DNA of 20,863 bases from Fimbriimonadales bacterium (GTDB lineage Bacteria; Armatimonadota; Fimbriimonadia; Fimbriimonadales; ATM1): contig JBGTLG010000027.1 in assembly GCA_041744215.1 (NCBI GenBank), positions 1 through 20,863 of the forward strand. The letters run 5' to 3'. Below, in pieces: positions 3,268 to 20,863 of this stretch (position 1 is the stretch's first letter; each line of letters starts with the position of its first letter). The notes beneath the pieces were generated by a model. It was not told the DNA's origin. It saw only the letters and a list, made by a program, of their open reading frames with translations, and ran no database searches. A program made the position numbers and the translations under genes.

Positions 3268-3338
3268 ACTTGCGCTTCGCTGTCTCGCCTGGAGGCGGAA
3301 TGGCTCAAGGGACCGATGCCTTTGGAGGGACTCCGTCC

Positions 3339-4076
3339 ATGACCATACTTGGCCTTGCTGTGCTGTTCGCCGCATCGTCAGCGGCTCCTGCCAACCTCTC
3401 CCCGTTGGTTGACTCCGACGTGGTCGACTACTATTCGCGCGCTTTATCGGCAGAGCGTGAAGGCGATTCTCAAAAGAGCATGGCTATGCTCAAAGCGCTG
3501 CTCGTCCCCCGCGCGGCGGTCAGGGTCGACTACTCAGGCCTTCCAGACGACATCCGCGCAAGCTTCAAGCGCGGTGTCGAGAGCGGTTTCGCTATGTGGC
3601 GAACTTCACTCGGCTCGGATATGCCGTTCACGCTGACCGACCGTGCCGACGCTCCGGTTACTCTCCGGTTCGTCGATGCGATCCATGGTCACAACCATCA
3701 GGGGATGGCTTGCAAAGGGGAGATCACCGCAAAGCGACGGATCCAGTGGGGCCCAAACGTCCACTATTTTGAGTTTACTGCTCAGGTCAGCATTGTTCGG
3801 TACCGGCAAGGCAAGGAATGGATGACCAGCGATGAGGTGGCGCACATAACCGCCCACGAACTTGGTCACGCCTTAGGTTTGGGCGACATCCAGAGATCCG
3901 GCAGACTGATGGGGCCGATGGTGATGGGCAAGCCGCTCGCGAGCGTGCCTCCCGACGAATCTCGAGCTGTGGCCCAGCTTCGATCGGTCCTGAAGTACGA
4001 GATCGATAGGGTTGCCACACAGTCATCTACACGGCCAGTATCCGGGAACCAGCGAACCGCAATCGCAATACCGTAA
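3339..4076 (+). CDS. Secreted zinc metalloprotease, metzincin (matrixin/snapalysin-like); start revised to ATG 3339
   Basis: SD GGAGGG upstream; signal-peptide-like MTILGLAVLFAASSAA; HELGHALGLGD zinc motif followed by a Met-turn (RLMGP). Confidence 0.82.
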   Translation: MTILGLAVLFAASSAAPANLSPLVDSDVVDYYSRALSAEREGDSQKSMAMLKALLVPRAAVRVDYSGLPDDIRASFKRGVESGFAMWRTSLGSDMPFTLTDRADAPVTLRFVDAIHGHNHQGMACKGEITAKRRIQWGPNVHYFEFTAQVSIVRYRQGKEWMTSDEVAHITAHELGHALGLGDIQRSGRLMGPMVMGKPLASVPPDESRAVAQLRSVLKYEIDRVATQSSTRPVSGNQRTAIAIP

Positions 4077-4218
4077 CCCTATTGCATTTAGTGCGTCAGA
4101 CCTTCGCTGCCAACTGAGGCAAGAGGGCAAAATCGCCTCAACAAGTTTTTTGGGGTCTTTTTTGCCAAAACTGCCGTAGAATGGTGGAAGCCACTCTCGT
4201 TGTTGGCGGAGGCTCTAC

Positions 4219-5673
4219 ATGAAGAGATTCTATCTAACGATCGCAGTCGTCGGCCTCACGGTCGCAATTTTGCCTGCCGGCGCTCAGTTTCGGCCCGGCA
4301 ACCCTCCGAAGCAGGACCCACCCAAACAAGGTGACCCGCCTAAACAGTCTCCCCCGGTGAACAACCCACCGCCGAGGCAGTCTCCTCCAGCGAACAACCC
4401 TCCGCCGAGGCAGTCTCCTCCGGCGAACAACCCGCCACCGAGGCAGTCTCCTCCAGTAAACAACCCGCCGAAGCAGAGCCCTCCGGTGAACAACCCTCCG
4501 CCGAGGCAGACACCGCCGGCGAACAACCCGCCGAAGCAGAGTCCCCCGGTGAACAACCCGCCTCCGAGGCAGTCTCCACCTATCAACAGCCCAGGCAGGC
4601 AGAACCCGCCACAGCAGGCTCCGCCATCTCAAGGTGGAGGACTCCAGCAGGGCAACCCGCCTCGCCAATCCCCACCCGGAAACTCAGGCTCGGGACCGGC
4701 TTTTGGCGACCGCAATGCAGGCAACCCTCCGAATCAGGGCGGTCGCTCAGGCAACGACATCACTCAGCCCGGACCGAAACCCGGCTTCGGCGACCGCGGG
4801 CGAATCTTCAATCCTAACGTCCCAGTTGCCGACCAGTTCAAGCCTACGAACCCTCAAGGGCCCGGCTTTTCGCCTAAGACGGGTGGCTTCGATACCAAGC
4901 AGAACACGAACGTCCCGTACGGTGGCAGTCAAGCCCACAAAACGCCGCATGCGTTCCCTGCTCCTTCTGGGCCGAGGATCCGCGATCCGTACTTCGTTGA
5001 TACGAGCTACTACGGGCGCAATCACTGTCGAATCGGGTACTCGCACTACTATCCGTGGTGGCGCGATTGGTACTTCGGCTATAGATGGTATGTCTCCGAC
5101 CCGTGGTCGTATCGTTGCTACTTCTCACCGTACTACTGGTATGTCTCGATCCCAGCTTACGTCCGCTATGACCGCGTGATCATCATCACGCCCCGGATCA
5201 TCGTGCTCACTGGCAGCTATCTGGACTGGCGTTACTACGGCATGGGTGCGACGCATAACACGTACTACGGCGGATACGGTTACAGCTATGGCAGCGCCGG
5301 TCGTCCGATCGATCGAGCTCTGAGTAACTTGACCGATGCCTTCCGCTATGAAGATCCATCTCTGTTGGGCAACTTCCTAACGTCCGACAGTCAGGTGAAC
5401 ATCTACATAGACGAGAACTATGCGTATACACTCAACGGCGCCGACTACTACGACATGACAGCTGACTTGATCCAAAACGTGTACACGACAAACTATCAGA
5501 TAGAGCGTGTACGCCAAGCCCGATCCGGCGAGTACGTCGTACTAGCGCGTCATGACTTCGTCGACCCGAACAACTCTCATCAGACCGTGTGGATGACGTT
5601 CACTCTGCAAGAGTATCGTGGCCACTTCTACATCATAGAAGCTGGCACGAGCCGTCATCAGCCGCGCATCTAA
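4219..5673 (+). CDS. Secreted protein: Pro/Asn/Gln repeat N-terminus, Tyr/Trp-rich middle, globular C-terminal domain (possibly NTF2-like)
   Basis: SD GGAGG at 4208-4212; signal peptide MKRFYLTIAVVGLTVAILPAGA; 484-aa ORF followed by a strong hairpin. Confidence 0.8.
   Translation: MKRFYLTIAVVGLTVAILPAGAQFRPGNPPKQDPPKQGDPPKQSPPVNNPPPRQSPPANNPPPRQSPPANNPPPRQSPPVNNPPKQSPPVNNPPPRQTPPANNPPKQSPPVNNPPPRQSPPINSPGRQNPPQQAPPSQGGGLQQGNPPRQSPPGNSGSGPAFGDRNAGNPPNQGGRSGNDITQPGPKPGFGDRGRIFNPNVPVADQFKPTNPQGPGFSPKTGGFDTKQNTNVPYGGSQAHKTPHAFPAPSGPRIRDPYFVDTSYYGRNHCRIGYSHYYPWWRDWYFGYRWYVSDPWSYRCYFSPYYWYVSIPAYVRYDRVIIITPRIIVLTGSYLDWRYYGMGATHNTYYGGYGYSYGSAGRPIDRALSNLTDAFRYEDPSLLGNFLTSDSQVNIYIDENYAYTLNGADYYDMTADLIQNVYTTNYQIERVRQARSGEYVVLARHDFVDPNNSHQTVWMTFTLQEYRGHFYIIEAGTSRHQPRI
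4345..4599 (+). repeat. Intragenic tandem repeat of 30/33-nt units encoding Q[ST]PP[VA]NNPP(PR/K); 7 clear units and 1 degenerate
   Basis: Visible in DNA and protein; synonymous variation between units. Confidence 0.92.
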
Positions 5674-6651: not shown

Positions 6652-8148
6652 CTAACGACAAGCTAAAACGGGACTGCTCCTGTGGATCACGAGCGAGCCC
6701 TCCTTCTCGCTCAGCGCAGATGCGTGATCAATTCGCATCTTAGCGAGTGGCAGTACCCGTTGACTCCGCCCGCGCCGAAGATTCCCGGAGCAGACGCCCC
6801 TACGCTCCGCCCAGTACTTCACGCCTAACCTCGCGGGTACCATTGCTCTTCGAGAGCGGCTGTAGCTTAATGGTAAAGCTCCTGCCTTCCAAGCAGGTGA
6901 CGTGGGTTCGATTCCCATCAGCCGCTCCAGGTTGTTTGAACTTGATTTCCGTCCCATTCGCCTATCTGCGGTCTCTGAATTCTGTTCCACCCCCGACTTC
7001 GGTGTAGTATTCGGTGTAGTATCCTCCGTGAGTTCCAGCCCCAGCATTGCCTCGGCTACGTCGCTATCAAGCGCTTTGACATATCTCTCGGTTGTCCTAA
7101 TGCTACGATGGCCCGCAACAGAAGCGACAACCTGTATCGACGCGGTTCTAGCCAGGTGAGTGAGCATCGTGTGGCGAAGTTCGTGAACGCTAAAGGGGTC
7201 GTCGACGCCAATCGCTTTTTGAAAGCGCTGAAAGGAGTGATGGATAGATGACCGGTGGTAGGGCGTGCCATCCTCCTGGCAAAACAGAAGCCCGTTGTCT
7301 CGATAGTCTGGACCGACATTTTCGCGGTCGATCTCACGTTGCAAGATCGCCAGTCTGAGTGCTTGTAGTGCCTTAGTGTTGAGCGGCAATAGTCGCTGAC
7401 TATGGCTCTTTGCGCTTCTGAGATCCCACTGGCCATCCTTGATGATCAGTTGATGGCTGATGTCGATACTGAGAACACCCTCATTTTCAACAATGGCATG
7501 TTCCGAAATGCCAAGCGCTTCTAAAACGCGAACTCCAGTATTGAGCAGAAAAAGCAGAATCGGATAGTGGCGAAACTTGCCTGCGGCAAACTGTTGCTCG
7601 GCCTCTGTTAGCACTCGTTGCAATTCGGCTTTGTTCATCGACCGAACCGGCGGACACTGGTAAGCTGGTCTCTTCACGTCCTCTGCGATGTTATGCGCCA
7701 CTAGCTTATGACGTTTGGCGAAGTTGAGACAGCGCTGGGCGATGTCGGCTGTGTAGATTGCAGTGCGAGTCTTGCCGGTTGCGTGCAGCCCGTTGACGAT
7801 CCGTTGCAATTGGACTGCTTGTAACTCCGATAAGCGTAGCCGCGCCAGCGAAGCAAGGTGGTTTCTTCGAACGCTAGTGTAAGATTCGACGGTTCTCGGC
7901 GACACCAGCGGTTCGCATATCTCCATTTGCAACCACAAATCGAACGCTTGATCGAACGTGAGAGTCTTGACAGTATCACAGATCCCTCCGACAAGTGTCA
8001 GTTGTTGCTTGACTGCCTCGATCTTCCTCTCAAGCTCTGATTTGGTCTTAGCTTTGCGTACGATCCTCCGGCCATTAACAACGAGCTCCCAACGTAGATA
8101 GGAACCCTCGCGGCGTCGACTGCCTTCACCTTTAGCCCGACGTTTCAT
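6652..8148 (-). CDS. Tyrosine recombinase/integrase; about 406 aa lie downstream of the tRNA and the last ~92 codons run antisense through tRNA-Gly and host DNA
   Basis: N-terminal KRRAKGEGS arm-binding motif; catalytic residues in TGVRVLEA, SAKS, HELRH, GHRS and TTERY. Confidence 0.93.
   Translation of the reverse strand: MKRRAKGEGSRRREGSYLRWELVVNGRRIVRKAKTKSELERKIEAVKQQLTLVGGICDTVKTLTFDQAFDLWLQMEICEPLVSPRTVESYTSVRRNHLASLARLRLSELQAVQLQRIVNGLHATGKTRTAIYTADIAQRCLNFAKRHKLVAHNIAEDVKRPAYQCPPVRSMNKAELQRVLTEAEQQFAAGKFRHYPILLFLLNTGVRVLEALGISEHAIVENEGVLSIDISHQLIIKDGQWDLRSAKSHSQRLLPLNTKALQALRLAILQREIDRENVGPDYRDNGLLFCQEDGTPYHRSSIHHSFQRFQKAIGVDDPFSVHELRHTMLTHLARTASIQVVASVAGHRSIRTTERYVKALDSDVAEAMLGLELTEDTTPNTTPKSGVEQNSETADRRMGRKSSSNNLERLMGIEPTSPAWKAGALPLSYSRSRRAMVPARLGVKYWAERRGVCSGNLRRGRSQRVLPLAKMRIDHASALSEKEGSLVIHRSSPVLACR
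6856..6929 (+). tRNA. tRNA-Gly (anticodon TCC), 74 nt, encoded CCA
   Basis: Acceptor stem GCGGCTG/CAGCCGC, D-arm GCTT...AAGC, anticodon arm CCTGC-CTTCCAA-GCAGG, T-loop GGTTCGATTCC, 3' TCCA; -10-like TACCAT at 6838-6843. Confidence 0.97.
6998..7021 (+). repeat. Perfect 12-bp tandem repeat TTCGGTGTAGTA x2; candidate integrase arm-type sites
   Basis: 6998-7009 is identical to 7010-7021, about 70 bp inside the element from the tRNA 3' end. Confidence 0.7.
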
Positions 8149-8432
8149 GGCTTATGCTTCCCGATCCGCTTCGCGCTTGTCAACCCGGAGATTGAGTTTA
8201 TCGCACATTTTGTGCAAGAGGGCTCTATTGCGTTATCAACGAGGCTAGCCTGTCTCACTTCGTACTCTTCCAAGCTGGTTCTTAGAATGCGCTTTCTTTG
8301 GCCGCGATAAAACCATCGGACTTCTTTGTCCTTTATGAGGCCGTAGATATGATCTCTCGAAGATCGAATGTATCGTGCGGCTTCCGAAACACTAAGCGAC
8401 GAGCACTCATTGAGTGGTGTTCGGATTTTCAT
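8145..8432 (-). CDS. Excisionase-like HTH DNA-binding protein (95 aa; start revised to ATG 8432)
   Basis: LSVSEAARYIRSSRDHIYGLIKDKEV...RKRILRTSLEEY pattern; ATGA overlaps with both neighbours. Confidence 0.85.
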   Translation of the reverse strand: MKIRTPLNECSSLSVSEAARYIRSSRDHIYGLIKDKEVRWFYRGQRKRILRTSLEEYEVRQASLVDNAIEPSCTKCAINSISGLTSAKRIGKHKP

Positions 8433-8974
8433 CGGTCTCCTCGCTGTGACTTTTGGTGTTGGCGCCCCTGCACCCAAGTTGCCAAGGCCTTGAGTGAAGA
8501 ACATGAGAGCCGCAAGCTAATCTGTGTAACCGATCGCAGGGCCCGAAATGTGAAGCGCCAGACAGAGTCTCGTTGTTTGGGAAAAGCCAGCGACACAAAG
8601 CCAACAATCAGCAACGCCAAGACGAGAAGGCGAAAAGCTTCAGCCAAGAATGTCTCGACGCCAAACCCGGCAACAAACTCAAACAAGAGAGTGATGACTG
8701 AGAAAGCAACTGCGGATATCCTCCCAGCGTTATGGACTGCGGTTTTCAGGATGAGCAACGCCACGCTCCACGCGAGCAACAGGGCTATCGTGCGCAAATT
8801 AAGCGATCTGGCAGTATCAGTCAACTCATCGCTACCGCAACGTAAACAGATATCAGTCTTAGCTGGGTTTAGATGCCGCTTCGAGCACAGGCTGCCCCCG
8901 AATGACTTGCCGCAATGACCACAGTAAAGCGATCCGGCGGGCCAGAGCTTGCGACAACGAACGCAGAGGATCAC
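8429..8974 (-). CDS. Double zinc-ribbon protein with C-terminal TM helices
   Basis: CVRC...CGHC...CSKRH...CLRC followed by 3 hydrophobic segments; GTGA overlap with the upstream gene. Confidence 0.75.
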   Translation of the reverse strand: MILCVRCRKLWPAGSLYCGHCGKSFGGSLCSKRHLNPAKTDICLRCGSDELTDTARSLNLRTIALLLAWSVALLILKTAVHNAGRISAVAFSVITLLFEFVAGFGVETFLAEAFRLLVLALLIVGFVSLAFPKQRDSVWRFTFRALRSVTQISLRLSCSSLKALATWVQGRQHQKSQRGDR

Positions 8975-9813
8975 CGTTGCCCTCCTTTGGCGGTAACAGG
9001 GAACAGTTCCTGAATTCGTCTATCGTGTCGACGCCAGATTGGCGCGTCTACTCCGACGGCTGCCAGTTGGCCAAAGGTCGTTCCAAGACATCGGCAATCG
9101 GACTTGCGGGTTAGTCCCAACAGATAGTCTAGCCGACGCACATTATTTGTAATGAAGAGCAGGGTAAAGCTGTCACTTCCGTAAGTGTCTTGGAAGACGC
9201 AGTCCATGTAGCGCTCGTACGATTCGAGTTTAGCGATCAGCTTGGATTTTGAGACGTTACCGAGATCGACTTCGATAAACGCATCAGCGGACCTGCTTTG
9301 GCAAGAAACTCGAATGAAAGCATCCGGCTTTAGAATGTGGTAAGCCCAGGACTTATCTCGGCGCTCGGAGTATTCGTGTCGGCAAAGCGATTCGGGTAGC
9401 CAGGCTTCCATCGTCAGTTGCGCCGAGCAGACAAAGGCACACCGCACATCGACAATACGAAGCGTGTGCTCATGCAGGGATTTCGACGGGCCTTGCCTAA
9501 GGAGTTTGCAAAGCTCGCGCTTGGTTATTGCGTTTCCGTCATCGAGTAGTGGTTCCGCTTTCGTTCCAACTCGAAAAACGGAGTGCTGACCCGAGACGTA
9601 ATGGACGGCCGGTTCCCGGTGCATTAGCCGAGCGGCAACAAGCTTGGCGAGCCTGCGGTTGGCGCGGTTTGACGTTGAGAAGTACCCAAGCCGAAGTATC
9701 TGAAGGCTCGACATCAACTTATGTGCGAAGATGTCGTTTAGCAGCCGAACGTCGCGCTCGGTCAACCGAAGCGAAGAGTCTCTCTTACTGTCGGAGTTTT
9801 GGTTTGCGCACAT
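8971..9813 (-). CDS. Replication-relaxation (Replic_Relax)-like protein, wHTH plus PD-(D/E)XK-type domain
   Basis: RLTERD..LL...LQI, RRLAKL, HEHTL, KPDA, FIEVDLGN and KLESYERY motifs. Confidence 0.82.
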   Translation of the reverse strand: MCANQNSDSKRDSSLRLTERDVRLLNDIFAHKLMSSLQILRLGYFSTSNRANRRLAKLVAARLMHREPAVHYVSGQHSVFRVGTKAEPLLDDGNAITKRELCKLLRQGPSKSLHEHTLRIVDVRCAFVCSAQLTMEAWLPESLCRHEYSERRDKSWAYHILKPDAFIRVSCQSRSADAFIEVDLGNVSKSKLIAKLESYERYMDCVFQDTYGSDSFTLLFITNNVRRLDYLLGLTRKSDCRCLGTTFGQLAAVGVDAPIWRRHDRRIQELFPVTAKGGQR

Positions 9814-11185
9814 GACGCACCTCCGTGTGACGCCTGGGATCGTCTGTCTGTGTTTCCGCTTCCGGAGTTACCCAACGCTTGAGAATTTGCCGGCGCAGGA
9901 TGCGAGTATCGCCACCAGCCGGCTCAGATGCCAAAACGGTGCGGACTCTCCTGGCCTTGTGGGAGCGAACGACGAGAAACGCTTCACCGACCGGGAGGCT
10001 AAGAAGAGCCTCGTTCACCGCATCGCGTTTGCCTTGTCCGTGAATTTCGCTGGACAGCGCGGTAGCATCGCTAAGACCCGTCTGAAAAAAGACCTGAGTA
10101 TGAACGTTGTTGCGAACAACCTCCTTGAGCTTCGCAGGTAGCTGAGATAGATTTTGATGGGAGAGCACGAGCGACAAGCCGAAACGCCGACCTTCGGCAA
10201 TGATTGTTTCAAAAGATTCCGATGCCATCGTCTCGAATTCGTCGACCACAAGATGAACTTTGGATCTCTGGCTTTCCGGGTCGTCGGCTTTGGAGAGCGC
10301 CGCGCATTCGATCGCGGCGACAAGCAAACTACCGAGTAGCTCTGCCGCGCCGTGTAATCGGTGAGCGGCCAGGGCGACAAGGAAGACTCGGCCCGGGTAC
10401 TGAAGCAAACTGCGAAGATCTATTGATTGCTTTGCCTCCAGAACACGGCGCACAATCGGAACCGACAGATAAGGCGTTACCTTGTTGAGAGCCGCTCCGA
10501 CCCACAGAGACTGCTTTTCGGCAGACAGTTGTTCGTAACGCTCGAAAAACGATAGCACCAACGAATCATCGCAACTCTTCAGCGCTCGGCGACGAAAGAC
10601 TTTGTCGACGAGCAATCTCTCTAGATCAATCAAAGCTAAACTGGCGCAGGCAAGCGCGACCAATGCGTTCCGAAGCGATTCTTCGATCTGGACGCCCCAA
10701 GACTCGCTGTGGCGCCGAAGAATGCCGAGCACATGAAGCGCATTGGTGTGCGGATCGCCGCCACCAGAGAGAGGATTGAAGCCGACGATAAGCTCCCGTT
10801 CCCTTAGGTCCAAAAGGCAGAGCCGTTCAACGGCGTCGTTTTCGGAGATGTTGTCGGCAATCCGCGAGAGAATCTGGTCAATCAAATCGCCTCTAAGATC
10901 GATGACGCACACACTTTGACCGTTAGCGACCAGATGATCGATTAAACGCAACAGAAGATTCGTCTTGCCCGATCCCGTCGCGCCGAGAACGTAGAAGTGT
11001 CTTGCCAAGTCGTCGGGCAGTAGATAGATTTCCTCGTGCGGTTCTTTGCAATCGTGACCGAGCAAGAAACGACCTTCGGGGAAATCGGCTTTACTACTAG
11101 GCGCACTGCGTCGCGGATACAAGAAGCCAGTAGCATCCGATATCCTGATTAGCGCGTCTTCCACGATTTCGACTAGCGGTCTCAT
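9785..11185 (-). CDS. VirD4/TraD/HerA-like P-loop ATPase (type IV coupling-protein-like, 466 aa; start revised to ATG 11185)
   Basis: RHFYVLGATGSGKT (Walker A), VIDLRGDL, GFNPL, LVVDEF (Walker B), EGRRFGLSLVLSHQNLSQL; SD GGAGGG and ATGA overlap. Confidence 0.88.
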   Translation of the reverse strand: MRPLVEIVEDALIRISDATGFLYPRRSAPSSKADFPEGRFLLGHDCKEPHEEIYLLPDDLARHFYVLGATGSGKTNLLLRLIDHLVANGQSVCVIDLRGDLIDQILSRIADNISENDAVERLCLLDLRERELIVGFNPLSGGGDPHTNALHVLGILRRHSESWGVQIEESLRNALVALACASLALIDLERLLVDKVFRRRALKSCDDSLVLSFFERYEQLSAEKQSLWVGAALNKVTPYLSVPIVRRVLEAKQSIDLRSLLQYPGRVFLVALAAHRLHGAAELLGSLLVAAIECAALSKADDPESQRSKVHLVVDEFETMASESFETIIAEGRRFGLSLVLSHQNLSQLPAKLKEVVRNNVHTQVFFQTGLSDATALSSEIHGQGKRDAVNEALLSLPVGEAFLVVRSHKARRVRTVLASEPAGGDTRILRRQILKRWVTPEAETQTDDPRRHTEVRHVRKPKLRQ

Positions 11186-12465
11186 CGTGCCCTCCAAAGT
11201 TCGGCAAGCCGTGATCTTTGATGGCTGCGACCCGAAGAATTGCGATCCGGTAGCGTCTCGGTGATTGCATCCTCTGCAGCGAAGCTCGCGGCGGCCGCAT
11301 CGCTCTGACAATCCTCAAGGCGACGCTTGTCCGCAAGCGGGAGGTCGTCGTCAAGACTGGCTTCAAGCTCGGCGATTCTGTAGGCAAGCTCGGTGCGTCG
11401 AACGTGTAAAATGTACGCTTGCCTATGAGAGGCCGCAGCTTCGGCAAACTGCTCGGAGAGAAGAAACGTTTGCCGTTGCTCGGTTTTGGCGCGAAGAACG
11501 GCAACTTGACGTGCCGACTCAATGCCGCCGAAGAATCCGACCGACAGATAACAGGCGACAACCGGCAACGCCAAAACGAACGAAACGATAGATAGCTCCG
11601 TTTTCGAGAGCGAGAACGAGCGCAAACTGTTCTCTTCGGTTAGCGTCCGAAGCAGTCCGAGCTGCTCGACTTTGGCCTCTATCAAAAGAAAAGCGGCTGC
11701 CAAAGCGATAAGAACGATACAGACAGCAACGAGTAAGGCGTTAGAAACTCGTAAGGACCCGATTGCTTTCAGCTCGGCGCGAAAGCCAACGTATTCGGCG
11801 ACCGGAGTAAGCGCTGCTCCAATCAGGTAGATCACTGCCATGCCCAACGCCGCAAAGAGGATCAGTTGCAGATAGTCTAGCGAGAGATCGGAGAGAGTTA
11901 GTCCAGAAACGAGCAAGCCGAGACTAACGCCAAAGAGCGTTCCTCCTCCGAACACGGCCACCAGCTTCGCCAAAGCGTTACTAAGTTTGCTCTTTGGCTT
12001 CGGCAACGGGATACCGAGAAGCCCGGCAGCCGAGTAGTCGCTTAGCGGCTCGTCGTCTGCAAAGTCGAGCCGGGGTTCTTTACATCGGAGCTTAATGCCA
12101 ACTTTGGACGCTTTCGCTGCGGCTTCGGGCAACTGCTCTTCGAATCTATGATCAAGCTCCTTTAGATTGCGCTTACACTCATCAATTCTCTTCCCCACTT
12201 CGAGTTGCCTTCCTTCCTGTTTTGCTCTTAGCTCTGTCTCCAGCTGATCGCACTTTTCCTCGTGAGCGATAGCTGCGGCGGCTCTGAGGGCAGGAAAAGC
12301 GGTAACTGCATTCTCGGGCGATTCGCTAAGACGCTTTGTAAAACCCAAAAGCGCCTGCGGGTCGGCGGTGATAAGCGGGCGCATGGAGCAGAGCTTGCGC
12401 GGCAAGGCGTCGCCGTTTTCGTCGCGGCGTCTCGGAACAATGTTCGAGAAAACCCAGTTCATCAT
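11182..12465 (-). CDS. Hypothetical membrane protein (coiled coil, ~4 TM helices, coiled coil)
   Basis: 427-aa ORF with SD GAAGGAG and ATGA overlaps at both ends. Confidence 0.75.
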   Translation of the reverse strand: MMNWVFSNIVPRRRDENGDALPRKLCSMRPLITADPQALLGFTKRLSESPENAVTAFPALRAAAAIAHEEKCDQLETELRAKQEGRQLEVGKRIDECKRNLKELDHRFEEQLPEAAAKASKVGIKLRCKEPRLDFADDEPLSDYSAAGLLGIPLPKPKSKLSNALAKLVAVFGGGTLFGVSLGLLVSGLTLSDLSLDYLQLILFAALGMAVIYLIGAALTPVAEYVGFRAELKAIGSLRVSNALLVAVCIVLIALAAAFLLIEAKVEQLGLLRTLTEENSLRSFSLSKTELSIVSFVLALPVVACYLSVGFFGGIESARQVAVLRAKTEQRQTFLLSEQFAEAAASHRQAYILHVRRTELAYRIAELEASLDDDLPLADKRRLEDCQSDAAAASFAAEDAITETLPDRNSSGRSHQRSRLAELWRAR

Positions 12466-12557: not shown

Positions 12558-13579
12558 GCTACGACACATCACCCGAAGGGCAAGCCAAAAAGCACGAGCG
12601 GAACGTGAGGCTGCTAATGCTCGACCTAAAAGAACGACCGGACCATCCCTTCGTCCACTTTTGCATCGGGATGGAATACCATTACAACCACGAGCACGAG
12701 CAAGCAATCCAGCACCTGATCCGCTCCATTAAACTATCCGGAAGCGGCGACACGATTCTTCGTAAGACTTGGGCGTTGCTGGCTGGATCGCTGGAAGCAC
12801 TCGGCAAAATCGATGATGCCCTCGAAGCCTACCGGAAAGGAATTGTGGCGGTCGGCAATGATCCCGACCTCTGTTTTGGGAGGGCGAAACTCCTCGATGC
12901 ACTCGGGAGAAAAGAGGAAGCGATCGCGAACTACTTCCGCGCCACTCAGGCGGATATCTCGGAGCACTTCTCGAGCTTCGACATTGGCATCGTCAACTAC
13001 AAGTCGTACCACAACCTCGGCAACATCTTCCTCGAACTCGGTAGATATGATGAGGCGAGAGAGGTCTGGCAGAAGGCGATGCAGGCGAACCTCTCCGAGA
13101 TCGGTTCCGCGCTCCCGCTGTTTCAAGCAGCTCTCCAACAAAAGGACTACGCAACCGCGAAGGAGTGCAAGGATCGCATCTTCCATGTCGCTGGCTTAGG
13201 AGAGAGCTTCTGCGTTGCCGAAGCCAACTGGCTCAATTCAATACAGGGCCCTGGCGCTGGCCTTGTGGCTCTTCAGCAGATCGCGCAGACGCACCAAACC
13301 GAGGGATCGATGCTGGTCCTCTGCCGCGAGCTCCTCGGGAGAGGTATGGAACGCGAGGCCGTTCCCTGGTTGCTTCGACTAAACGAGCTGGACGTAGCCG
13401 AGGCCGCGTTCCTGCTCGGCAGCATCGAGACCCAACAGGGAAACCATGAAGCGGCGCTGGCCTGGATGCACCGGGCACAACACCTTAACCCGGATCACGA
13501 GCCGACAGCGCGTCTCGTAGCGGCTCTCGAATCGAGGACATTGGCACCCGGCCCCGATCCTCCACGTCTAATGAGCTAG
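12551..13579 (+). pseudogene. 5'-truncated GT2-family glycosyltransferase/TPR protein (GT2 tail and TPR array only)
   Basis: GYDTSPEGQAKKHERNVRLL...PDHPFVHFCIG resembles the HxGY...KxERNxxLL end of GT2-TPR proteins, followed by several TPRs. No DxD domain and no credible start; the track start at 12368 lies within the opposite-strand gene. Confidence 0.7.
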
Positions 13580-13583
13580 CTGC

Positions 13584-13946
13584 ATGTACTCCGAAACAGT
13601 CCACGACCACGTCGGTAAGCCCCGTAACATCGGGCCGCCGGAGGGTCACACGCACGAAGGCACCTTCGGCACACCCGGTGAGGGACCGTACATTCGGATT
13701 TTTCTCAAAATTAGCGGAACCAAAATCGCTAAAGTCGGTTATCATACATATGGATGTCCTGCGGCGATAGCCTCAGCGAGCGTCCTCTGTGAAATGGTAG
13801 TCGGTCTGGACGTCAAGGACGCCGCCCGAATCGATGAAGAACAAGTGATAGGGGCCCTGGGAGGTCTCCCGGATGGGAAACGGAACCGGGCCGCAGAAGC
13901 CGTGGCCGCCCTCAAGGCGGCACTGGAGAGCGAACGAAATGCCTGA
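13584..13946 (+). CDS. IscU/NifU-N-like protein with degenerate Fe-S ligands
   Basis: MYSETVHDH..KPRNIG, TYGCPAAIASAS, LGGLPDGK and ALKAAL align with IscU, but the first and third Cys are absent. Confidence 0.85.
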   Translation: MYSETVHDHVGKPRNIGPPEGHTHEGTFGTPGEGPYIRIFLKISGTKIAKVGYHTYGCPAAIASASVLCEMVVGLDVKDAARIDEEQVIGALGGLPDGKRNRAAEAVAALKAALESERNA

Positions 13947-14166
13947 TACGCGACCGGTTTGCGTACCCGTAACAGACGGAGATGGCGGCGACCCGTGTGA
14001 CCCGAGTTGTCCAGGGGCCGACTCTGAAACGGCGATGTGCGTCTTCGGAAGGGCGAACAACCTACCTATATGGGTTCCTGTTTCAGCGGGCATCGCCCTC
14101 CTAAGCTCCGGTCAGGGGTTTTCCCCGTGTCCGTGGCCAAACAACAGTTCGATCGTAGAGGGTTAG
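13939..14166 (+). CDS. Small Cys/Pro/Asp-rich hypothetical protein (75 aa)
   Basis: SD GGAGAG at 13925-13930; ATG overlaps the end of the IscU-like gene; 5 Cys; fills the gap before the RHS SD. Confidence 0.55.
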   Translation: MPDTRPVCVPVTDGDGGDPCDPSCPGADSETAMCVFGRANNLPIWVPVSAGIALLSSGQGFSPCPWPNNSSIVEG

Positions 14167-14188
14167 AAGGAGAACTGGAGGAACAGCG

Positions 14189-17100
14189 TTGGAAAAGATT
14201 TACATTCCCTCCCCTGACGAAGCAGCGAATGCACTTGCGCACGAAAACTCAAGTCGGCACCCATACCGGCCAACGCCGAATCCGGTAACCGGGGAGTTGA
14301 TAGTTGACCCTGAGATCGTACTCAAAGCAAAGAATTACAACTTAGCGATTTCTTTCTTTTATTCTTCGCTCAGCCAACTCAACAGGGAGTACGGTGTGGG
14401 ACGAGCTGCGAGTGTTCGGGGTTACGTGATGTCGAACGTTTTCCATCCTGAGATTCCCGGCTCCGGCCAAGACGTTCACATCGTTCGCGGCGATTTCTCG
14501 ATGCACAACTATCAGAAAGTTGGAACAACGGGCAGCGTCACGACTTATGTTGCTGATTCCGCGGGAACCGTTTCCACGCTCAGTTACGACTCCACCGCCA
14601 ACGAATTCACCGAGTACTTCACCAATGGCCGTAAGTTCCTTTACGAAGACCAAGCAGACATTACTGTTTCAGGATACGATAAACATGAGCTTATTCGAAT
14701 TGAGGACGCTAATGGTATTGTGCAAACTTACGCCTACGCAGCCGGTGATGAAAACGGCCTTCTAAAAACCATCGAAGTCTACGGCGGACGCAAAGTCACG
14801 TTTGTCTACCAAGCTGCGGGAGGCAGCACGTCACTTCTTAACTACATCGAAGACTGGGGAGGAAGAAGAACTACGTTTCAATACGACAACAACCGCTGCA
14901 TGACAACGATGACTTCGCCACTCGGCTGCGTCACGCAATACGGCTACATCTCGGGCGGTCAGGCAGGATTCCTGTTGGAGACAATTCAAGATCCGAGGGG
15001 CTTTGTCACAACCTATGCCTACGACAACCAATGGAGGGTCGTCAGTATGGCTGCCGGTTCTGCAGTTTTTACATGGGTCTATGCTTCAAACGCGAATCGA
15101 ACGACGCTAATGTGGCCGACAGGGGCGGTCGTCACCTACAACTTTGACAATGAAGGCAACGTGGCAACGGAAGACAAGCCTGAAGGATACAGAGTTACGT
15201 ACGCTTACCAAAACCGGCTGCGAACAAAGATTGAGCTTCCGGCTGGAGTTATCTCAAGCCTCGCATACAATCAATCGCTCTGGCTCGTGGAGAAATCCGA
15301 TGACGCACTCGGTAACCGGACGACGTTTCAATACGATTCCTTCGGCAACCTCACCACGCTGGTGAACGGACTCGGAGAGGTAACCACCTTCGGTTACGAC
15401 GGCTCCGGTTCGACACACCGCAGAATCCGCATAACCGATCCCTTGGGCCGCGTAACCAGCTACGTCTACGACACTGACGGCCAGGTCGTCTCGATGATCG
15501 ATCCCCGTACGCTAACCACCCACTACAAATACGACACCTGGGGAAACGTCGCATCCATGGTGGATTCCCGGGGCGGGATCACAACCTACGAATACGATGT
15601 CCTCAACAGATTGACGACGGTCACCGACCCGTTAGCCCGCGTCACCACTTTCGCCTATGACGCTGGGGATCATCAGGTTGAGGTCACCAATCCGCTCGGC
15701 GAGAGATCCCAATACATCTACGACGGCTGCCTACTCCAAGCCGCCGTCGATCCTCTCGGGAATCGGACCACCTACGCCTACGGCCGGTATGACAACCGCA
15801 CATCGGTCAAAGACGCTTTGGGCAACATCACGACGTACGCCTACGACAACATGGGTTACCTGACGACGGTGACCGACGCGCTCGGCAACTCTTCCAAGAT
15901 CGCCTACAACAACGCCAAGCAGAAGATTGCCGACGTCGACCAGCTTGGAAACAGAACGACCTATGCCTATGACGGCAGCGGGCGGCTCGGCTCAGTGATG
16001 GATGCGAGAAACAACGTCACCACCAACGCCTACAACGCCAGGAGCGACGTGACCACTGTGACCAACGCTGTCGGCAACACGATGGTCTACGAATACGACG
16101 CTCTCGGGCGGCAAGTGTCGGTGAAGAGCGCGCTCGGCCAAGCCTCGACGACGGTCTACGACACGGTCGGGCAAGTCTCCGCCACCGTCGATCCGCTCAC
16201 CAATCGGACGACGTTCCAGTACGACGGCTCCGGTAACCGCACCACCGTCATCGACGCCAACGACAAAATCACGAGTTACATCTACCCGGCAGACTCGAAC
16301 CTTTTGGCGACAATGATAGACGCCAATGGCAAGACAACCACCTACCTCTACGACGCGGCCGGGCAGCAAACGACTATCACCGACGCACGAGGCAACTCGA
16401 CCGGATACATCTACGATCTCGCGGGAAGAACGAAGGCGGTCCGGGATGCTCTTAGCGGACTCGTCACCTACGGCTACGATGCCGCAGGCAGAACGATAAC
16501 GGTCATCGACCAACTCAGCAGAATCTCGACATCGCTCTATGACGCGGTCGGTAGGGTTACCACAAGCATCACCCCGCTGGGTAACGTCTCGACCTACGCC
16601 TACGATGCGGTCGGCAGGCAGATACGGATGACAGACCAGCTCGGCAACAGTTCGGAAAGCGTCTACGACGATGCGGGGCGCCTCAAGGCCAGTGTGAACC
16701 CACTCGGCCACCGCACGACGTATTCTTATGACACCGTCGGCAATCAGGTCACGGTTATGGACGCGAGGAACAACATCCAGACGACGGTTTTCGACGCCGT
16801 AAACCGAGTCTCGGCGAGCGTCGATGCACTCGGGAACCGCACGACCTATCTCTACGACTCAGCTGGCCGCAACACCACGCTGGTCGACGCCAGAACCAAC
16901 ACGATCGTATTCGGCTACACAGCCCGGGGCGAGCTGCTTTTCGAGAAAGACCAACTCGACCGCATCACAACCTACTCTTATGACAACGTCGGGAGGTTGA
17001 CGGCGAAGTTGCGACTCCCGGTCGGTGCATTGGGGTCGCCGACAAGCTACGGTTATGACAATGTAGGCAGACTCGTAACCACCTTGTATCCCGACTCCAC

Positions 17101-18001
17101 ACGCGTGACATATCAGTACGATTCCGTCGGAAATCGAACGACGATGGTCGACACGATTGGCACGACGACCTATGTTTATGACGCCTTGAACCGATTGACA
17201 GGCAAGACCGACCCAGGCTCATTGGTGCAAAGCTACGAATACGACGCGGCATCGCAGAGGAAGAAGCTGGTAGATCCCGACAACGGGGTGATGACGTTCA
17301 GTTATGATATCGACGGGCGTCTTGTGTCGTTCACAGATCCTGCGGCCAACGTCACGACGTATGGCTACGACGGAGCGGGCCGCCGCACGCAAGCAGCGTA
17401 CATTTCCGCACTCTTGCGCGAATGGGCCTACGATCCTGCGAGTCAGCTCATAACGATCGACGACATCGACTCTCAATCGGCCGATCCGTTGCAGCGTTTC
17501 GATTTCGCATATGATCCGGCTGGCAATCGGAACGCGATCATCGACTCGAACGGTGCCCACACGACGTACGTCTATGACGCCAAGAACCGGTTGACCCAAG
17601 ACCATACGACCGGCACCAACGCACACATCTACGACTACTCCTACGACGGAAACGACAACCGTTTGACTTCGAACGAGACGGGTGAAGTGACGACTTTCGC
17701 CTACGGACCGTCTAACCAGTTGGCGACCAGCGTCAATTCCGCCGGGATCACGACATACGTGTATGACTTCAACGGGAACCTGACCCGCGTGCAGGAACCC
17801 ACGAACAGCGCGCGAGCAACCATGACCTATGATAATGAAGACCGGCTCAAACTGCATAGGTATTGGGAAACTGGCATGGGCAGCGAGCAAGTCACGACGT
17901 ATGTATATGAAGGCGGCGGATTGAAGAGAGTCGAGATCGTTGACGGCGCAGTAACGACGATTGTTTGGGATGGAGACGAGTATCTCGGAGAGGTGCAGTA
18001 G
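14189..18001 (+). CDS. RHS/YD-repeat barrel protein (DUF6531-like N-terminus) lacking the RHS-associated core
   Basis: SD GGAGGA and TTG start; PNPVTGEL...FFYSS...YGVG motif; dozens of YD repeats (DxLGNRTTYxYD); ends at WDGDEYLGEVQ*. Confidence 0.93.
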   Translation: MEKIYIPSPDEAANALAHENSSRHPYRPTPNPVTGELIVDPEIVLKAKNYNLAISFFYSSLSQLNREYGVGRAASVRGYVMSNVFHPEIPGSGQDVHIVRGDFSMHNYQKVGTTGSVTTYVADSAGTVSTLSYDSTANEFTEYFTNGRKFLYEDQADITVSGYDKHELIRIEDANGIVQTYAYAAGDENGLLKTIEVYGGRKVTFVYQAAGGSTSLLNYIEDWGGRRTTFQYDNNRCMTTMTSPLGCVTQYGYISGGQAGFLLETIQDPRGFVTTYAYDNQWRVVSMAAGSAVFTWVYASNANRTTLMWPTGAVVTYNFDNEGNVATEDKPEGYRVTYAYQNRLRTKIELPAGVISSLAYNQSLWLVEKSDDALGNRTTFQYDSFGNLTTLVNGLGEVTTFGYDGSGSTHRRIRITDPLGRVTSYVYDTDGQVVSMIDPRTLTTHYKYDTWGNVASMVDSRGGITTYEYDVLNRLTTVTDPLARVTTFAYDAGDHQVEVTNPLGERSQYIYDGCLLQAAVDPLGNRTTYAYGRYDNRTSVKDALGNITTYAYDNMGYLTTVTDALGNSSKIAYNNAKQKIADVDQLGNRTTYAYDGSGRLGSVMDARNNVTTNAYNARSDVTTVTNAVGNTMVYEYDALGRQVSVKSALGQASTTVYDTVGQVSATVDPLTNRTTFQYDGSGNRTTVIDANDKITSYIYPADSNLLATMIDANGKTTTYLYDAAGQQTTITDARGNSTGYIYDLAGRTKAVRDALSGLVTYGYDAAGRTITVIDQLSRISTSLYDAVGRVTTSITPLGNVSTYAYDAVGRQIRMTDQLGNSSESVYDDAGRLKASVNPLGHRTTYSYDTVGNQVTVMDARNNIQTTVFDAVNRVSASVDALGNRTTYLYDSAGRNTTLVDARTNTIVFGYTARGELLFEKDQLDRITTYSYDNVGRLTAKLRLPVGALGSPTSYGYDNVGRLVTTLYPDSTRVTYQYDSVGNRTTMVDTIGTTTYVYDALNRLTGKTDPGSLVQSYEYDAASQRKKLVDPDNGVMTFSYDIDGRLVSFTDPAANVTTYGYDGAGRRTQAAYISALLREWAYDPASQLITIDDIDSQSADPLQRFDFAYDPAGNRNAIIDSNGAHTTYVYDAKNRLTQDHTTGTNAHIYDYSYDGNDNRLTSNETGEVTTFAYGPSNQLATSVNSAGITTYVYDFNGNLTRVQEPTNSARATMTYDNEDRLKLHRYWETGMGSEQVTTYVYEGGGLKRVEIVDGAVTTIVWDGDEYLGEVQ

Positions 18002-19089
18002 TGGCGCTCTCGAAGCGATACTTGAGTGTACAAGGGGAGATCGTCGGCGAGAAGGCTAGCGGCAGTTCTCGGATTGATTACCTGACCGACGCACTCGGTT
18101 CTGTCACCGCAACAGTCGACCAAAACGCGCAGGTTGTCAACACCTATCGCTACAAGCCGTATGGAGCGCAGCTTGCAAAGTCGGGAGCAGGTGCAGATCC
18201 GAGGTTTAGGTGGGTTGGGTCATGGGGTTACCGACAGACAGGCGTCCAGGTCTCAGATACTTACGTGAGAGCAAGACACTACTCAACCATTTTGGGTCGG
18301 TGGTGTAGCGAAGACCCTCTATACTTGGGCTCAACGTATGGCGAGGCTGATCCAACCGGCACGATTGATCCATCGGGGCTTATTCCGGTTCGATTTGAGT
18401 TTAACGCTTTCATAAACAAACGTATCGGCAAATTCCATAATGGAAGATACTGGACTGCTTTCCCATTTGGTTGGGTGTTCAAAATTATCACTCTGCCTCA
18501 CATTCGTGCCGAGCTGTGGGCTAGCACTAACGATCGTGGCCATGGTGAACCAGGCACCTCTAAACACACGTCTTGGGCTACTTGTGAAAGTGCTGCGCTC
18601 GGTGATCCGTCTGCGTGTAACACAGCAGTGAGAATGGGTACTTCGGCAGTCTTGATCGTCAGATACTCAAAGTTTACGGGAGAGCAACTGAGTAGTTTCG
18701 TAATCCCTAAGCTTGGTGTGTACAGAATGCCTCCCGTTCACTTCGCAAATCGGCTCGGGCCGTGTGCGAATCGTGCGGTGTTCCTTATTTCTGCTTGTAC
18801 CGGTTTTCTTCCCGCAAGTCAACGCTCCAGGAAAACCTGCATCGACTATCAGATTTTTGTCGACTTCTTCGTGGTTGCACCCGGGCGAGTTGGCATCAGG
18901 CTCCAGGGCAACCATGACATGTTCCCTGATTACGAAGCACTTGTTCTCGCGCCGGGACCGAGAAAACTGTTTTGGCGATACACCACGCCGTTCAAAGCGA
19001 TTGATGCTGGAGGGTTAGACATCCAAACTGGGTGGAGGCAACTCAGCTATACCGAAGTTGATGCCCCGACGCCGCCATGTTGCGAATAG
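18001..19089 (+). CDS. RHS repeat-associated core plus C-terminal toxin tip (362 aa; start revised to GTG 18001; predicted cleavage after DPSGL, tip 18382-19086)
   Basis: YLTDALGSV, YRYKPYG, YVRARHY...GRWCSEDP and PTGTIDPSGL; SD-like GGAGAGGT; TAGTG stop/start overlap. Confidence 0.9.
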   Translation: MALSKRYLSVQGEIVGEKASGSSRIDYLTDALGSVTATVDQNAQVVNTYRYKPYGAQLAKSGAGADPRFRWVGSWGYRQTGVQVSDTYVRARHYSTILGRWCSEDPLYLGSTYGEADPTGTIDPSGLIPVRFEFNAFINKRIGKFHNGRYWTAFPFGWVFKIITLPHIRAELWASTNDRGHGEPGTSKHTSWATCESAALGDPSACNTAVRMGTSAVLIVRYSKFTGEQLSSFVIPKLGVYRMPPVHFANRLGPCANRAVFLISACTGFLPASQRSRKTCIDYQIFVDFFVVAPGRVGIRLQGNHDMFPDYEALVLAPGPRKLFWRYTTPFKAIDAGGLDIQTGWRQLSYTEVDAPTPPCCE

Positions 19090-19099
19090 GAGGATTTCA

Positions 19100-20131
19100 G
19101 TGAAAGCCCAGTGGAGACCAATGATAGCCTTCGTCGCAGCATCTTGCCTAATCGGAATTGTTGTTTGCTCAGGGGTCTATCTCCTAAATGCTGGTCACGG
19201 TGAAGGGTGGGATCAGGCGATGCAGGAGATTTCGAGAAAGAGCGTCGATGCACCGCCCATATCAGCGATAGCTTTTTCTCAAGACAGTAAGACGCTTCTA
19301 GCGTGTGGCGACGGAATGATCTTCGTTTGGGACGTATCGCGAGGCGATCTCCTGTGGAAAAAGAAATTGCCATTGAAAGGGGCTCAGCGTGCAATCTGTC
19401 TTGATGACGGCACGTTTCTCGTTGGCGGTCCGAACTGGTACAGGATAGACATCGCAAGGAGGACGGTGGAGTTTGTTAGTCCTGTCGCAGGCACGGAACC
19501 TGATGCAACGACGTTGCTGTGGTCTCGTGACCAAAACTACTTGGTCTACATACACTCATTCGATAGCAAGACGAGGCGTGGCCGCGCCGCACTCTGGAAC
19601 GTATTCGAAGCAAGGAAAGTAGCTGAAGTCGCTATCAGCGATGCCGAGACCTTTGGAGTCTCATTCTCAGGTGATGGCAAGTACGTGGGATTTGGGCAAG
19701 ATTCCGAGGTAGCTGTCCACACCACAGCTGACGGCTCCTATTATACAGGCATACAGTCGGGAACCCCTGAGTTACCACGTATGGGCCCGCGCTCCATTGC
19801 TTTCGTTGGCCCATCGCGCTTGATGGCATTTTCAGATGCTGTCGAAGTAATCGTTATGGAGCCTGAAGGTCCGATTGATATCGTAATGGTCCCCTCGAGT
19901 GGACTACCTTCACTTTTTGCGTCCCAGAAGAGCTTTCTTCTTGCTGTAGTTGATCAAACGGTCGCTTTTTATGATGCAAGGGACGGCAAGCTGCTTGTTA
20001 CGTTGCCACGCACGATGGAAGTGGTTGACGTAGCATTTGGCGAAAGTCAAAACCTTGTTGCAGTTGCATTCGAACGCGGGATAGTGGTGCTGAGCTCGAA
20101 GCGTTTCTTCGTCCATCAAGTCTTGCACTAA
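19100..20131 (+). CDS. WD40-like beta-propeller with N-terminal TM/signal anchor; putative immunity protein (start revised to GTG 19100)
   Basis: SD AGGAGG overlaps the toxin stop; hydrophobic N-terminus; ISAIAFSQDSKTLLACGDGMIFVWD, VSFSGDGKY and VAFYD blades. Confidence 0.78.
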   Translation: MKAQWRPMIAFVAASCLIGIVVCSGVYLLNAGHGEGWDQAMQEISRKSVDAPPISAIAFSQDSKTLLACGDGMIFVWDVSRGDLLWKKKLPLKGAQRAICLDDGTFLVGGPNWYRIDIARRTVEFVSPVAGTEPDATTLLWSRDQNYLVYIHSFDSKTRRGRAALWNVFEARKVAEVAISDAETFGVSFSGDGKYVGFGQDSEVAVHTTADGSYYTGIQSGTPELPRMGPRSIAFVGPSRLMAFSDAVEVIVMEPEGPIDIVMVPSSGLPSLFASQKSFLLAVVDQTVAFYDARDGKLLVTLPRTMEVVDVAFGESQNLVAVAFERGIVVLSSKRFFVHQVLH

Positions 20132-20381
20132 GTACTGTCATCTGTTTAGCAGCGGGTGGCTGACCCGCCGGACCAAGGAGAGAAAACGGAGTGAAAGAAA
20201 TCGCAGTGAGAACAAGACTGGGCGGCGTGGGTAATGGGCGATCCGCGAGACGCGTGTGCTTCGGACGGGTGGCAGAAGTGACCATCGACAAGACACGGAA
20301 TGAAAAAGATGACAGCAGGAACAAAAATGCGTGCCAAAGGTGATGGGCGAGGTGCAACGCCCTCGATCCGCAAACAAAGCA

Positions 20382-20493
20382 CCCGAGTTTGCCCCAGCTT
20401 TCCATCACCCACCTAACGACGAAGCACGATGCAAGGCACATTGAGAAGTCCGATGTTCGCAGACCGCAACTCAAAGATTGTTGTGACCCCGCC
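20382..20493 (+). repeat. Diverged dispersed repeat, copy B (copy A at 5981-6093)
   Basis: 20431-20477 matches 6032-6078 at 44/47 nt. Confidence 0.85.
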
Positions 20494-20606
20494 AGTTTTG
20501 GTAGCGGCACGAGTGAGTTCTGGTCATGCCTTATGGAGGAGATTGAATGACAACGAGTTCATCCATGGCCAACACGACCGATGCCCCACCCCTGCCCCGC
20601 CCGTCA

Positions 20607-20863
20607 AAGTGACAACTTTGGCCTACGGCCCGTCTAACCAATTGGTGACCAGCGTAAACTCGGCCGGAACGACGACGTATACCTATGATTTCGACGGGAA
20701 TCTCACTCGGGTGGCCGAGCCAACGAACCAGGCGCGGACCACGATGAGCTACGACGGTGAGAATCGCCTCAAGGTTCACGAGCATTGGGACAACGGCATG
20801 ATGAACCCACAAGTGGCGACCTACCTGTACGAAGGCGGAGGCCTGAAGCGGGTCGAAAACGTC
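20607..20863 (+). pseudogene. Orphan copy of the RHS barrel C-terminal end, running off the window
   Basis: Frame from 20609: VTTLAYGPSNQLVTSVNSAG...YEGGGLKRVENV; 63/85 aa identical by hand count to the protein encoded at 17687-17941. Confidence 0.88.

Follow-up and report, generated by a model that had tools for sequence, protein, structure and literature searches.

Tc toxins enclose their cargo in a YD/RHS cocoon assembled from two separately encoded chains, and Rhs toxins carry shell, core and cargo on one polypeptide. How cargo enters the Rhs/Tc cocoon is still debated; in single-chain Rhs proteins, entry is inseparable from folding of the shell. Passages of PMC11067744 give TcC a conserved N-terminal domain of about 680 residues, describe one Tc B chain pairing with several C chains from distinct loci (YenB with YenC1-3), and speculate that the same situation may apply to other RHS proteins. 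Here we analyzed an Rhs locus on a 20,863-nucleotide (nt) stretch of DNA from a Fimbriimonadales bacterium (contig JBGTLG010000027.1 of assembly GCA_041744215.1, positions 1 to 20,863, forward strand), hereafter the window, which is the whole of contig C27 of a 2.68-Mb, 42-contig genome (G000). An original prediction, made from the sequence, had proposed a natural two-chain design for this locus, and the comparative evidence from paralogs, from the junctions of relatives and from metagenome contigs supports that design. We conclude that the locus probably encodes a functional Rhs polymorphic toxin whose cocoon is specified by two translationally coupled genes.

Two overlapping genes at the Rhs locus

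The features of the locus, in window positions, are as follows.

14189..18001, + strand: Rhs barrel (shell) gene, 1270 amino acids (aa), TTG start, no Rhs core, ending ...TTIVWDGDEYLGEVQ-TAG
17987..17994, + strand: Shine-Dalgarno (SD)-like GGAGAGGT, within the last barrel codons (G-E-V), 7-14 nt 5' of the GTG
17999..18003, + strand: stop/start overlap TAGTG; the G of the barrel TAG (17999-18001) is also the first base of the core GTG (18001-18003)
18001..18381, + strand: Rhs-associated core, 127 aa; beta-hairpins, then RARHY..GRW..DP and DPSGL (putative aspartyl self-cleavage site)
18382..19089, + strand: variable cargo (toxin) domain, 235 aa plus the stop codon (19087-19089)
19061..20131, + strand: candidate immunity gene, with an N-terminal hydrophobic segment and WD40/beta-propeller-like repeats (weak WD40-type Pfam matches)
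20555..20863, + strand: orphan module, a barrel 3' fragment 63% identical to the tail of the main barrel, continuing on contig C42

The barrel matched the Pfam family RHS_repeat (PF05593) in 18 stretches (E 3.9e-137), as well as TEN_YD-shell, and the NCBIfam model TIGR01643 (E 3.9e-103). Its C-terminal end reads ...WDGDEYLGEVQ before the TAG. The downstream frame, read from the GTG, runs V-ALSKRYLSVQGEIVGEK...IDPSGL, with VALSKRYLSVQGEIVGEK...RARHYSTILGRWCSEDP...IDPSGL along the same chain, and matched TIGR03696 (Rhs_assc_core; NCBIfam) at 40.8 bits against a cut-off of 32.5. This core-toxin gene encodes 362 aa, comprising a 127-aa core and a 235-aa cargo; DPSGL occupies residues 123-127 from the GTG and places the core end at 18381, the core length and end coordinate that had been predicted. 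Shell, core and cargo, whose presence on one polypeptide defines Rhs toxins, are thus distributed over two chains in the window.

Bases 17987-18001, read directly, are GGA GAG GTG CAG TAG; with respect to the barrel, the core is read in frame -1/+2. Sequence and translation confirmed to the base that the barrel ends with YLGEVQ-TAG at 17999-18001 and that the core opens in another frame, at a GTG sharing one base with that stop; GGAGAGGT was found exactly where the original prediction had placed an SD-like sequence. Its duplex energy with a canonical anti-SD sequence was -7.8 kcal/mol. The same TAGTG geometry occurs in locus L005 of genome G034. A promoter and terminator scan of 13500-20863 stayed at chance level (5 versus 4.0 expected and 8 versus 6.7 expected) and gave nothing at the junction.

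The original prediction had proposed looking for an indel near position 18000 and for the continuation of the orphan module beyond 20863. Contigs of three hot-spring metagenome runs from one study (X1, X2 and X3, of which X1 is possibly the window's own source) agreed with the window across position 18000, with no difference, gap or indel; record 4 of X2 covers 17694-18153, and records 6 and 7 of X3 cover 17858-18136. The reverse complement of contig C42 shares an exact 138-nt overlap with the end of the window. On it the orphan reads ...TTIVWDGDEHLGEVQ-TAG-ATG-ALSKRYFTVQGEIIGEK, stopping at the same residue as the main barrel (WDGDEHLGEVQ, a WDGxxHLGEVQ end), with the start in frame, and a 351-aa second core-toxin gene follows the stop. 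A third copy, on contig C33, reads ...WDGDDYLQERT-TAA-ATG-PVVNYIVANG, also with the start in frame. The three paralogs, which are 40-70% identical, keep the stop and the adjacent start, whereas the stop codon and the frame differ.

Similarity between the window's core-toxin protein and its C42 paralog ends at core residue 126, and the sequences diverge past DPSGL. The window cargo gave no Pfam or NCBIfam match and no usable match in the ESM Atlas. An AlphaFold2 (AF2) model of the window's core-toxin protein showed beta-hairpins over residues 1-135, with a predicted local distance difference test (pLDDT) score of ~70-80; pLDDT was ~30 for cargo residues 136-362. The next gene, at 19061-20131, shares its first 29 nt with the end of the toxin gene and is a candidate immunity gene by its position alone.

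Conservation of the junction among relatives

We took a census of junctions from 140 tblastn matches in fetched loci, after dropping 20 that start after query residue 12 and 4 near a locus edge. Of the 91 distinct junctions that remained, 44 are split and preceded by the WDG motif, 37 begin at a start of their own with no WDG in the 50 codons upstream, and fused forms account for 10. In 34 of the 44 with WDG, the stop falls 11 codons past its W, the position at which the original prediction had suggested that homologs be inspected. No continuous open reading frame (ORF) turned up in the contigs of the three runs or in close homologs, the closest fused forms being at most 41% identical. The split junctions use TAA (25), TGA (13) or TAG (6) as the stop codon and ATG (41), GTG (2) or TTG (1) as the start codon. 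The stop-to-start gap is -1 nt in 16 of them, 0 in 5 and +1 to +5 in 17, the remaining gaps being -29, -4, +10, +15, +77 or +83, and the three relative frames are represented 23, 13 and 8 times. Upstream of the junction, the barrel frame is open for at least 400 aa in 13 of the 44 (main genes), and the other 31 follow shorter barrel fragments. Among the 37 junctions without WDG, 35 have ATG and 34 start no more than two residues from the conserved position.

Since stop and start are kept while the frame varies, neither sequencing error nor programmed frameshifting nor readthrough is compatible with these junctions as a general mechanism. Selection has thus preserved the stop and the neighboring start but not the frame, which is a two-gene signature. 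SD-like pairing of -4.5 kcal/mol or stronger was present in 74% of 58 distinct core starts, compared with 19% of 3000 random positions, and the median was -6.6 at core starts versus -2.4 at random positions. TAATG, TGATG and TAGTG overlaps and gaps of a few bases are a classical geometry of termination-reinitiation, as described in PMC6728339. From these features, we infer that termination-reinitiation coupling operates at the junction.

The barrel side of the junction was examined in colinear relatives. The search for barrel representatives was swamped by giant repeat proteins, and a handful of colinear relatives were usable. The N-terminus of the window's barrel, HPYRPTPNPVTGELIVDPEIVLKAK, matches these relatives, split and fused alike. 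Among the split ones, P0151 (1257 aa) ends with WDGSDYLQWRVD and P0251 (1252 aa) with WDGEDYVGGQS, and in G221 (1246 aa) and G010 (1090 aa) the barrel likewise stops with the WDG motif. Main barrels whose repeats are intact (1090-1270 aa) stop exactly at the junction, with the core gene directly 3'. The fused colinear relatives with the HPYRPxP...IDPEI.LKAK motif are P0240 and a 1513-aa protein of G354.

Two side observations concern these barrels. The N-terminal motif HPYRPxPxxxTGxLxIDPxIxLKAKxFxL...FFY (window 14189-14500 and relatives) has no family assignment and is common to split and fused members; the first ~110 barrel residues matched no Pfam domain, and the motif may be a plug or an export signal. 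P0184 (1369 aa), a colinear barrel, has neither stop nor core: WDDDDYLQSRF is followed by ~120 residues of non-core sequence, a tail that may be a different C-terminal solution or read-through of the junction.

On the core side, 14 residues are invariant in 91 aligned core-toxin proteins (D26, Y27, G33, T38, Y49, P53, G55, L58, G62, D66, G73, G76, D123 and G126), and D105, in GRWxxxDP, is kept in at least 90% of them. By motif, D105 and D123 match what we take to be the two aspartates of the self-cleaving site of Rhs and TcC. The most conserved stretch is formed by the first ~60 residues (M-x-V-T-N-Y-Y-T-V-N-G-E-I-I-G-E-K...DYLTDALGS). Only 4 of the 91 cargos carry a Pfam domain (NAGPA in two, polysaccharide deacetylase in one and Ntox16 in one), and 87 gave no match. 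As a separate observation, the cargo of the C42 orphan (reverse strand, ~4.25-5.30 kb) is cysteine-rich and has a HELMH (HExxH) motif, and the 91-protein consensus also shows HExxHxC; Pfam recognized no such cargo. Going by this motif, many cargos may be zincin-like.

At the protein level, at least 406 short proteins (199-634 aa) among 621 candidates match the core at E<=1e-5. Of 120 such proteins listed, 114 start within -3 to +2 residues of window residue 1, and their consensus start is M-[AP]-V-T-N-Y-Y or M-A-M-K-K-x-Y-Y. The longer candidates (635-2000 aa) numbered 570, of which six matched, all of them fused Rhs proteins of Streptomyces with 34-40% identity, which is weak evidence. The first 130 core residues matched 25 of 41 relatives (E<=1e-5) and, in a sample of the phylum, 137 of 401 genomes and 92 of 208 genera (E<=1e-8). 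Among the matches listed from this phylum survey, every one that is at least 45% identical sits in an open frame of at most 441 aa; seven sit in frames of at least 800 aa, all at most 43% identical.

The named short core-toxin proteins are from Armatimonadetes metagenome-assembled genomes (MAGs), and 30 of the 35 named genome records with the pattern belong to Armatimonadota (Chthonomonadales, Fimbriimonadaceae and Armatimonas). The other five comprise three loci in one MAG labeled Methanoregulaceae, one labeled Synechococcus and one Phycisphaeraceae (fused, 34% identical). The loci labeled Methanoregulaceae archaeon (L075, L083 and L092) and Synechococcus sp. (L069) hold Armatimonadota-type cassettes on contigs of 121-751 kb, and mislabeling or mis-binning seems more likely than transfer as the source of these labels. 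A quick tree was built from 86 core segments; one of its clades, with a Shimodaira-Hasegawa-like approximate likelihood ratio (SH-aLRT) support of 99, contains 52 short-frame and 8 fused rows, and the fused G203, G304, P0240, P0177, G354 and G339 are nested within it. Well-supported branches force at least six label changes, an approximate count from a tree built on few columns by a quick search with a midpoint root, in which the 'short' label takes in a few fused orphan fragments (<60 aa of barrel). The split or fused state seems, on this tree, to have switched several times. L018, from G011, falls in the outgroup of the tree and was not used for any conclusion.

To locate the cut in the cocoon, we used a natural fused relative, because alignments of the barrel with chains of the Protein Data Bank (PDB) were repeat-scrambled; the cocoon fold was accordingly judged on the colinear G354 protein and not on the window's own barrel. 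A search of PDB sequences with the core by phmmer returned the mosquito SGS1 protein alone (E 2.5e-4). The last 800 barrel residues of G354 plus its core (940 aa, 41-row alignment) gave a model with a mean pLDDT of 86.6 and a predicted template-modeling score (pTM) of 0.77. By template-modeling score (TMq), it resembled the single-chain Rhs cocoons 7pq5 (0.85), 7q97 (0.81), 8cp6 (0.78) and 8h8a (0.75); values were 0.57 for TcdB2-TccC3 (4o9x), 0.59 for 9ifo and 0.44-0.69 for teneurins. In the model, strands are formed by ALIWDG (797-802) and DYLGVA (805-810); the loop PSAGSMS (811-817) follows, and TKYHTV (818-823) opens the next hairpin. Alignment of the window's ...YLGEVQ* / VALSKRYLSV to G354 puts the break inside loop 811-817, between strands 805-810 and 818-823. 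Because the second chain starts with strands that are integral to the shell in fused relatives, the core would be expected, by homology to these modeled relatives, to dock on the barrel.

We propose the following mechanism. The first gene would yield the 1270-aa YD-repeat barrel without a C-terminal Rhs core, and the second a 362-aa chain, started at the GTG that overlaps the barrel stop, behind the SD in the last barrel codons. A ribosome ending on the barrel would re-initiate on the core gene. The N-terminal hairpins of the core would then extend the final strands of the barrel and seal the shell around the cargo, and the two conserved aspartates of the core would cleave the chain after DPSGL, as happens in single-chain Rhs proteins and TcC. 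Immunity would come from the membrane-anchored propeller protein encoded downstream.

Cassette arrays and alternative explanations

Core and barrel counts were taken in near-complete genomes. In G010, one barrel N-terminus goes with about seven split-type cores spread over three sites. On its single contig, G221 has one barrel, two adjacent cores and one core ~1 Mb off; the single contig of G349 carries one barrel with five core-toxin genes in tandem behind it and three more elsewhere. Free-standing cassettes are thus found five in tandem in one closed genome, with others up to ~1.8 Mb away. The five tandem cassettes of G349 share the initiation region and the N-terminus MSASVLYTNFGGMLVHED, whereas their C-termini differ. 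In the window's genome, DNA of the main junction region and of the orphan aligns over 607 columns at 75% identity, and no exact run exceeds 22 nt. This identity fits the use of complete cassettes in trans, as do the ATG and SD that free-standing cassettes have of their own; the barrel fragments 5' of 31 junctions fit displacement too. The 127-residue core may be a portable loading-and-closing tag, such that one core-less barrel is filled post-translationally in trans by several core-toxin chains, and we give this proposal slightly less than an even chance.

Several observations weigh against a two-chain toxin at this locus or against its use in trans. The evidence for a two-chain Rhs comes from genes and predicted structures. 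The GTG of the window's core gene is a rare start type, found in 2 of the 44 split junctions, and a WDG-motif end was present in just 2 of the 150 best barrel representatives, a list dominated by giant repeat proteins. Pfam recognized no PAAR or other secretion or delivery domain in the barrel, and searches for TssC (PF05943) and Hcp (PF05638), positive in the E. coli controls, found neither in the 93%-complete genome. The G349 barrel (L096, G349:C1:1950200-1961800, reverse strand, 1218-4453) occupies two frames that overlap, 759 and 347 aa long, and could be frameshifted or further split. G040 and G034 have 7-8 core genes each and gave no match to the barrel N-terminus with this query; some cassettes may lack a partner barrel or use a divergent one.

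We weighed four other explanations. An indel from assembly or sequencing, or a frameshift that recently pseudogenized a single-chain rhs gene, is scarcely credible to us as the origin of the junction. The two frames of the window do differ by one base, as a 1-nt indel would leave them, but the contigs of the three runs agree with no letters missing or added. The paralogs and the 44 split junctions moreover share one stop position, whichever of the three frames and stop codons is used, next to a conserved start and SD, and the downstream core is conserved in the 406 or more proteins mentioned above. Recoding, either by programmed -1/+2 frameshifting or by stop-codon readthrough, would yield one canonical Rhs polypeptide, and it gains some appeal from paralogs and relatives whose stop is in frame with the start (TAG-ATG, TAA-ATG), where readthrough would fuse the two parts. 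No single rule, however, fits relative frames occurring 23, 13 and 8 times, three stop codons and gaps from -29 to +83 nt. Direct reading of 17990-18003 revealed no slippery heptamer, and a read-through linker needs neither the start kept in 114 of 120 listed proteins nor the SD upstream of it, which leaves recoding very improbable.

The other two explanations accept the split and concern what the core-toxin genes do. They might act without a barrel, for example as internal toxin-antitoxin (TA)-like modules, the core-less barrel being a remnant or having another role. Passages of PMC7043789 report such behavior for Salmonella Rhs-CT, which is made from internal promoters and a CTG start and acts in a type II TA-like manner; many of the cassettes studied here are far from any barrel, and G040 and G034 showed none with our query. 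Against this, the first ~60 core residues, which are the most conserved, are shell strands in the fused relative and would be needless for a stand-alone toxin, the repeat-intact main barrels described above stop right at the junction with the core gene next, and the tight stop-start coupling ties translation of the core to that of the barrel. We consider barrel-free action unlikely. A more substantial possibility, to which we nonetheless do not incline, is that the split is real but only the adjacent core pairs with the barrel, all other cassettes being a silent reservoir for recombination (C-terminal displacement). The 31 of 44 split junctions that lie behind barrel fragments of <400 aa are a classical displacement footprint, the window's orphan holds ~100 codons of barrel homology, and in the tree, cores from the same genome group together, a pattern expected from gene conversion. 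The 37 of 91 junctions without WDG within 50 upstream codons nevertheless keep their ATG and its position (in 35 and 34 cases, as given above), and the tandem cassettes of G349 each repeat the initiation region together with their shared N-terminus ahead of differing C-termini. With 75% DNA identity and a longest exact match of 22 nt, main gene and orphan would also be a poor substrate for homologous recombination.

If loading in trans is true, it would give the cell a mixed arsenal without recombination, and the cassette arrays would be a simultaneously usable arsenal instead of a silent reservoir. Covalent linkage of shell and cargo would then be dispensable for Rhs encapsulation, and the core would offer a short tag for putting foreign proteins into YD shells. 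A separate shell and a minimal chain of 127-aa core plus cargo provide a direct handle on cargo entry, as the two can be expressed apart, mixed, swapped and imaged. The family also gives the poorly studied Armatimonadota a large and diverse set of mostly unassigned cargo domains.

Surroundings of the locus and comparison with known systems

Just 5' of the Rhs locus, window positions 6652-12465 (- strand) hold the remnant of an integrative or mobilizable element, with the following genes.

6652-8148, - strand: tyrosine integrase
8145-8504, - strand: HTH_17 excisionase-like gene
8429-8974, - strand: zinc-ribbon protein
8971-9813, - strand: Replic_Relax relaxase-like gene
9785-11311, - strand: TrwB/TraG-type coupling protein
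within the element remnant 6652-12465, - strand: 427-aa ORF without a Pfam match

An rve-type transposase/integrase fragment (window 1-525, +) runs off the contig start, and a 484-aa ORF without a Pfam match (4219-5673, +) adjoins a matrixin-like Peptidase_M10 ORF (3270-4076, +). Elsewhere in the genome, contig C36 (~88.4-89.9 kb) carries a fused Rhs of a second, unrelated subfamily, YFYDGQMPMEEDY...QYGLGARGIDYIRNK...DPSGL, and near-identical orphan cores of that subfamily, with differing cargos, are present on C4 (~110.0-110.6 kb) and C3 (~12.3-12.8 kb).

Teneurins and the bacterial teneurin-like proteins share with the present system a YD shell with an Rhs core, and the window's barrel matches TEN_YD-shell. 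Teneurin-type proteins are described in passages of PMC13018210 as single chains with FN-plug and NHL domains, whereas neither domain was found in the window system.

The orphan rhs-CT modules of Enterobacteria, exemplified by the main and orphan rhs of Salmonella, form similar arrays of core, toxin and immunity genes 3' of a main gene, often behind a barrel fragment, and the arrays seen here match descriptions in PMC2935791 and PMC3967940. Classical orphans are presented in passages of PMC11067744 as incomplete fragments needing recombination; here, by contrast, each cassette is a complete gene with an SD and a conserved ATG at a fixed position. The comparison with Salmonella Rhs-CT, within the passages of PMC7043789 that bear on it, likewise sets weak internal CTG starts there against a conserved ATG and SD here.

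Single-chain Rhs toxins (Photorhabdus Rhs1/Tre23, 7pq5; Pseudomonas RhsA, 7q97; Tse5, 8cp6; RhsP, 8h8a) share the repeats, the cocoon fold, a core with DPxGL and polymorphic cargo followed by a small downstream gene. They differ in being one polypeptide and in being tied to parts of the type VI secretion system (PAAR/VgrG), whereas in the present family the chain is interrupted 11 codons past WDG by a conserved stop and start. The literature searched, which takes in few subscription journals, contained no description of an Rhs split at the core.

The Tc BC complexes (YenB/YenC1-3, TcdB2-TccC3) are alike in that a YD/RHS cocoon is made from two separately encoded chains, the second carrying the core and an encapsulated variable cargo; for the present system, the cocoon is deduced from fused relatives. 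The Tc C chain self-cleaves, and the window holds a putative site, DPSGL. The share of the shell differs: the second chain brings 127 residues in the window and ~680 in TcC, in agreement with the original prediction that TcC supplies a far larger part (on the figure in the passages of PMC11067744 cited above). Pfam found none of the TcB-type SpvB, mid and propeller domains in the window's barrel, and a search of the genome for TcA-like VRP1 gave no match, yet its control was silent too. The model of the fused relative is nearer to single-chain Rhs cocoons (TMq 0.81-0.85 for the two closest) than to TcdB2-TccC3 (0.57), and the window system belongs to a phylum-wide family. The two-chain principle is known from Tc toxins, and the cut at a 127-residue core is a new variant of it.

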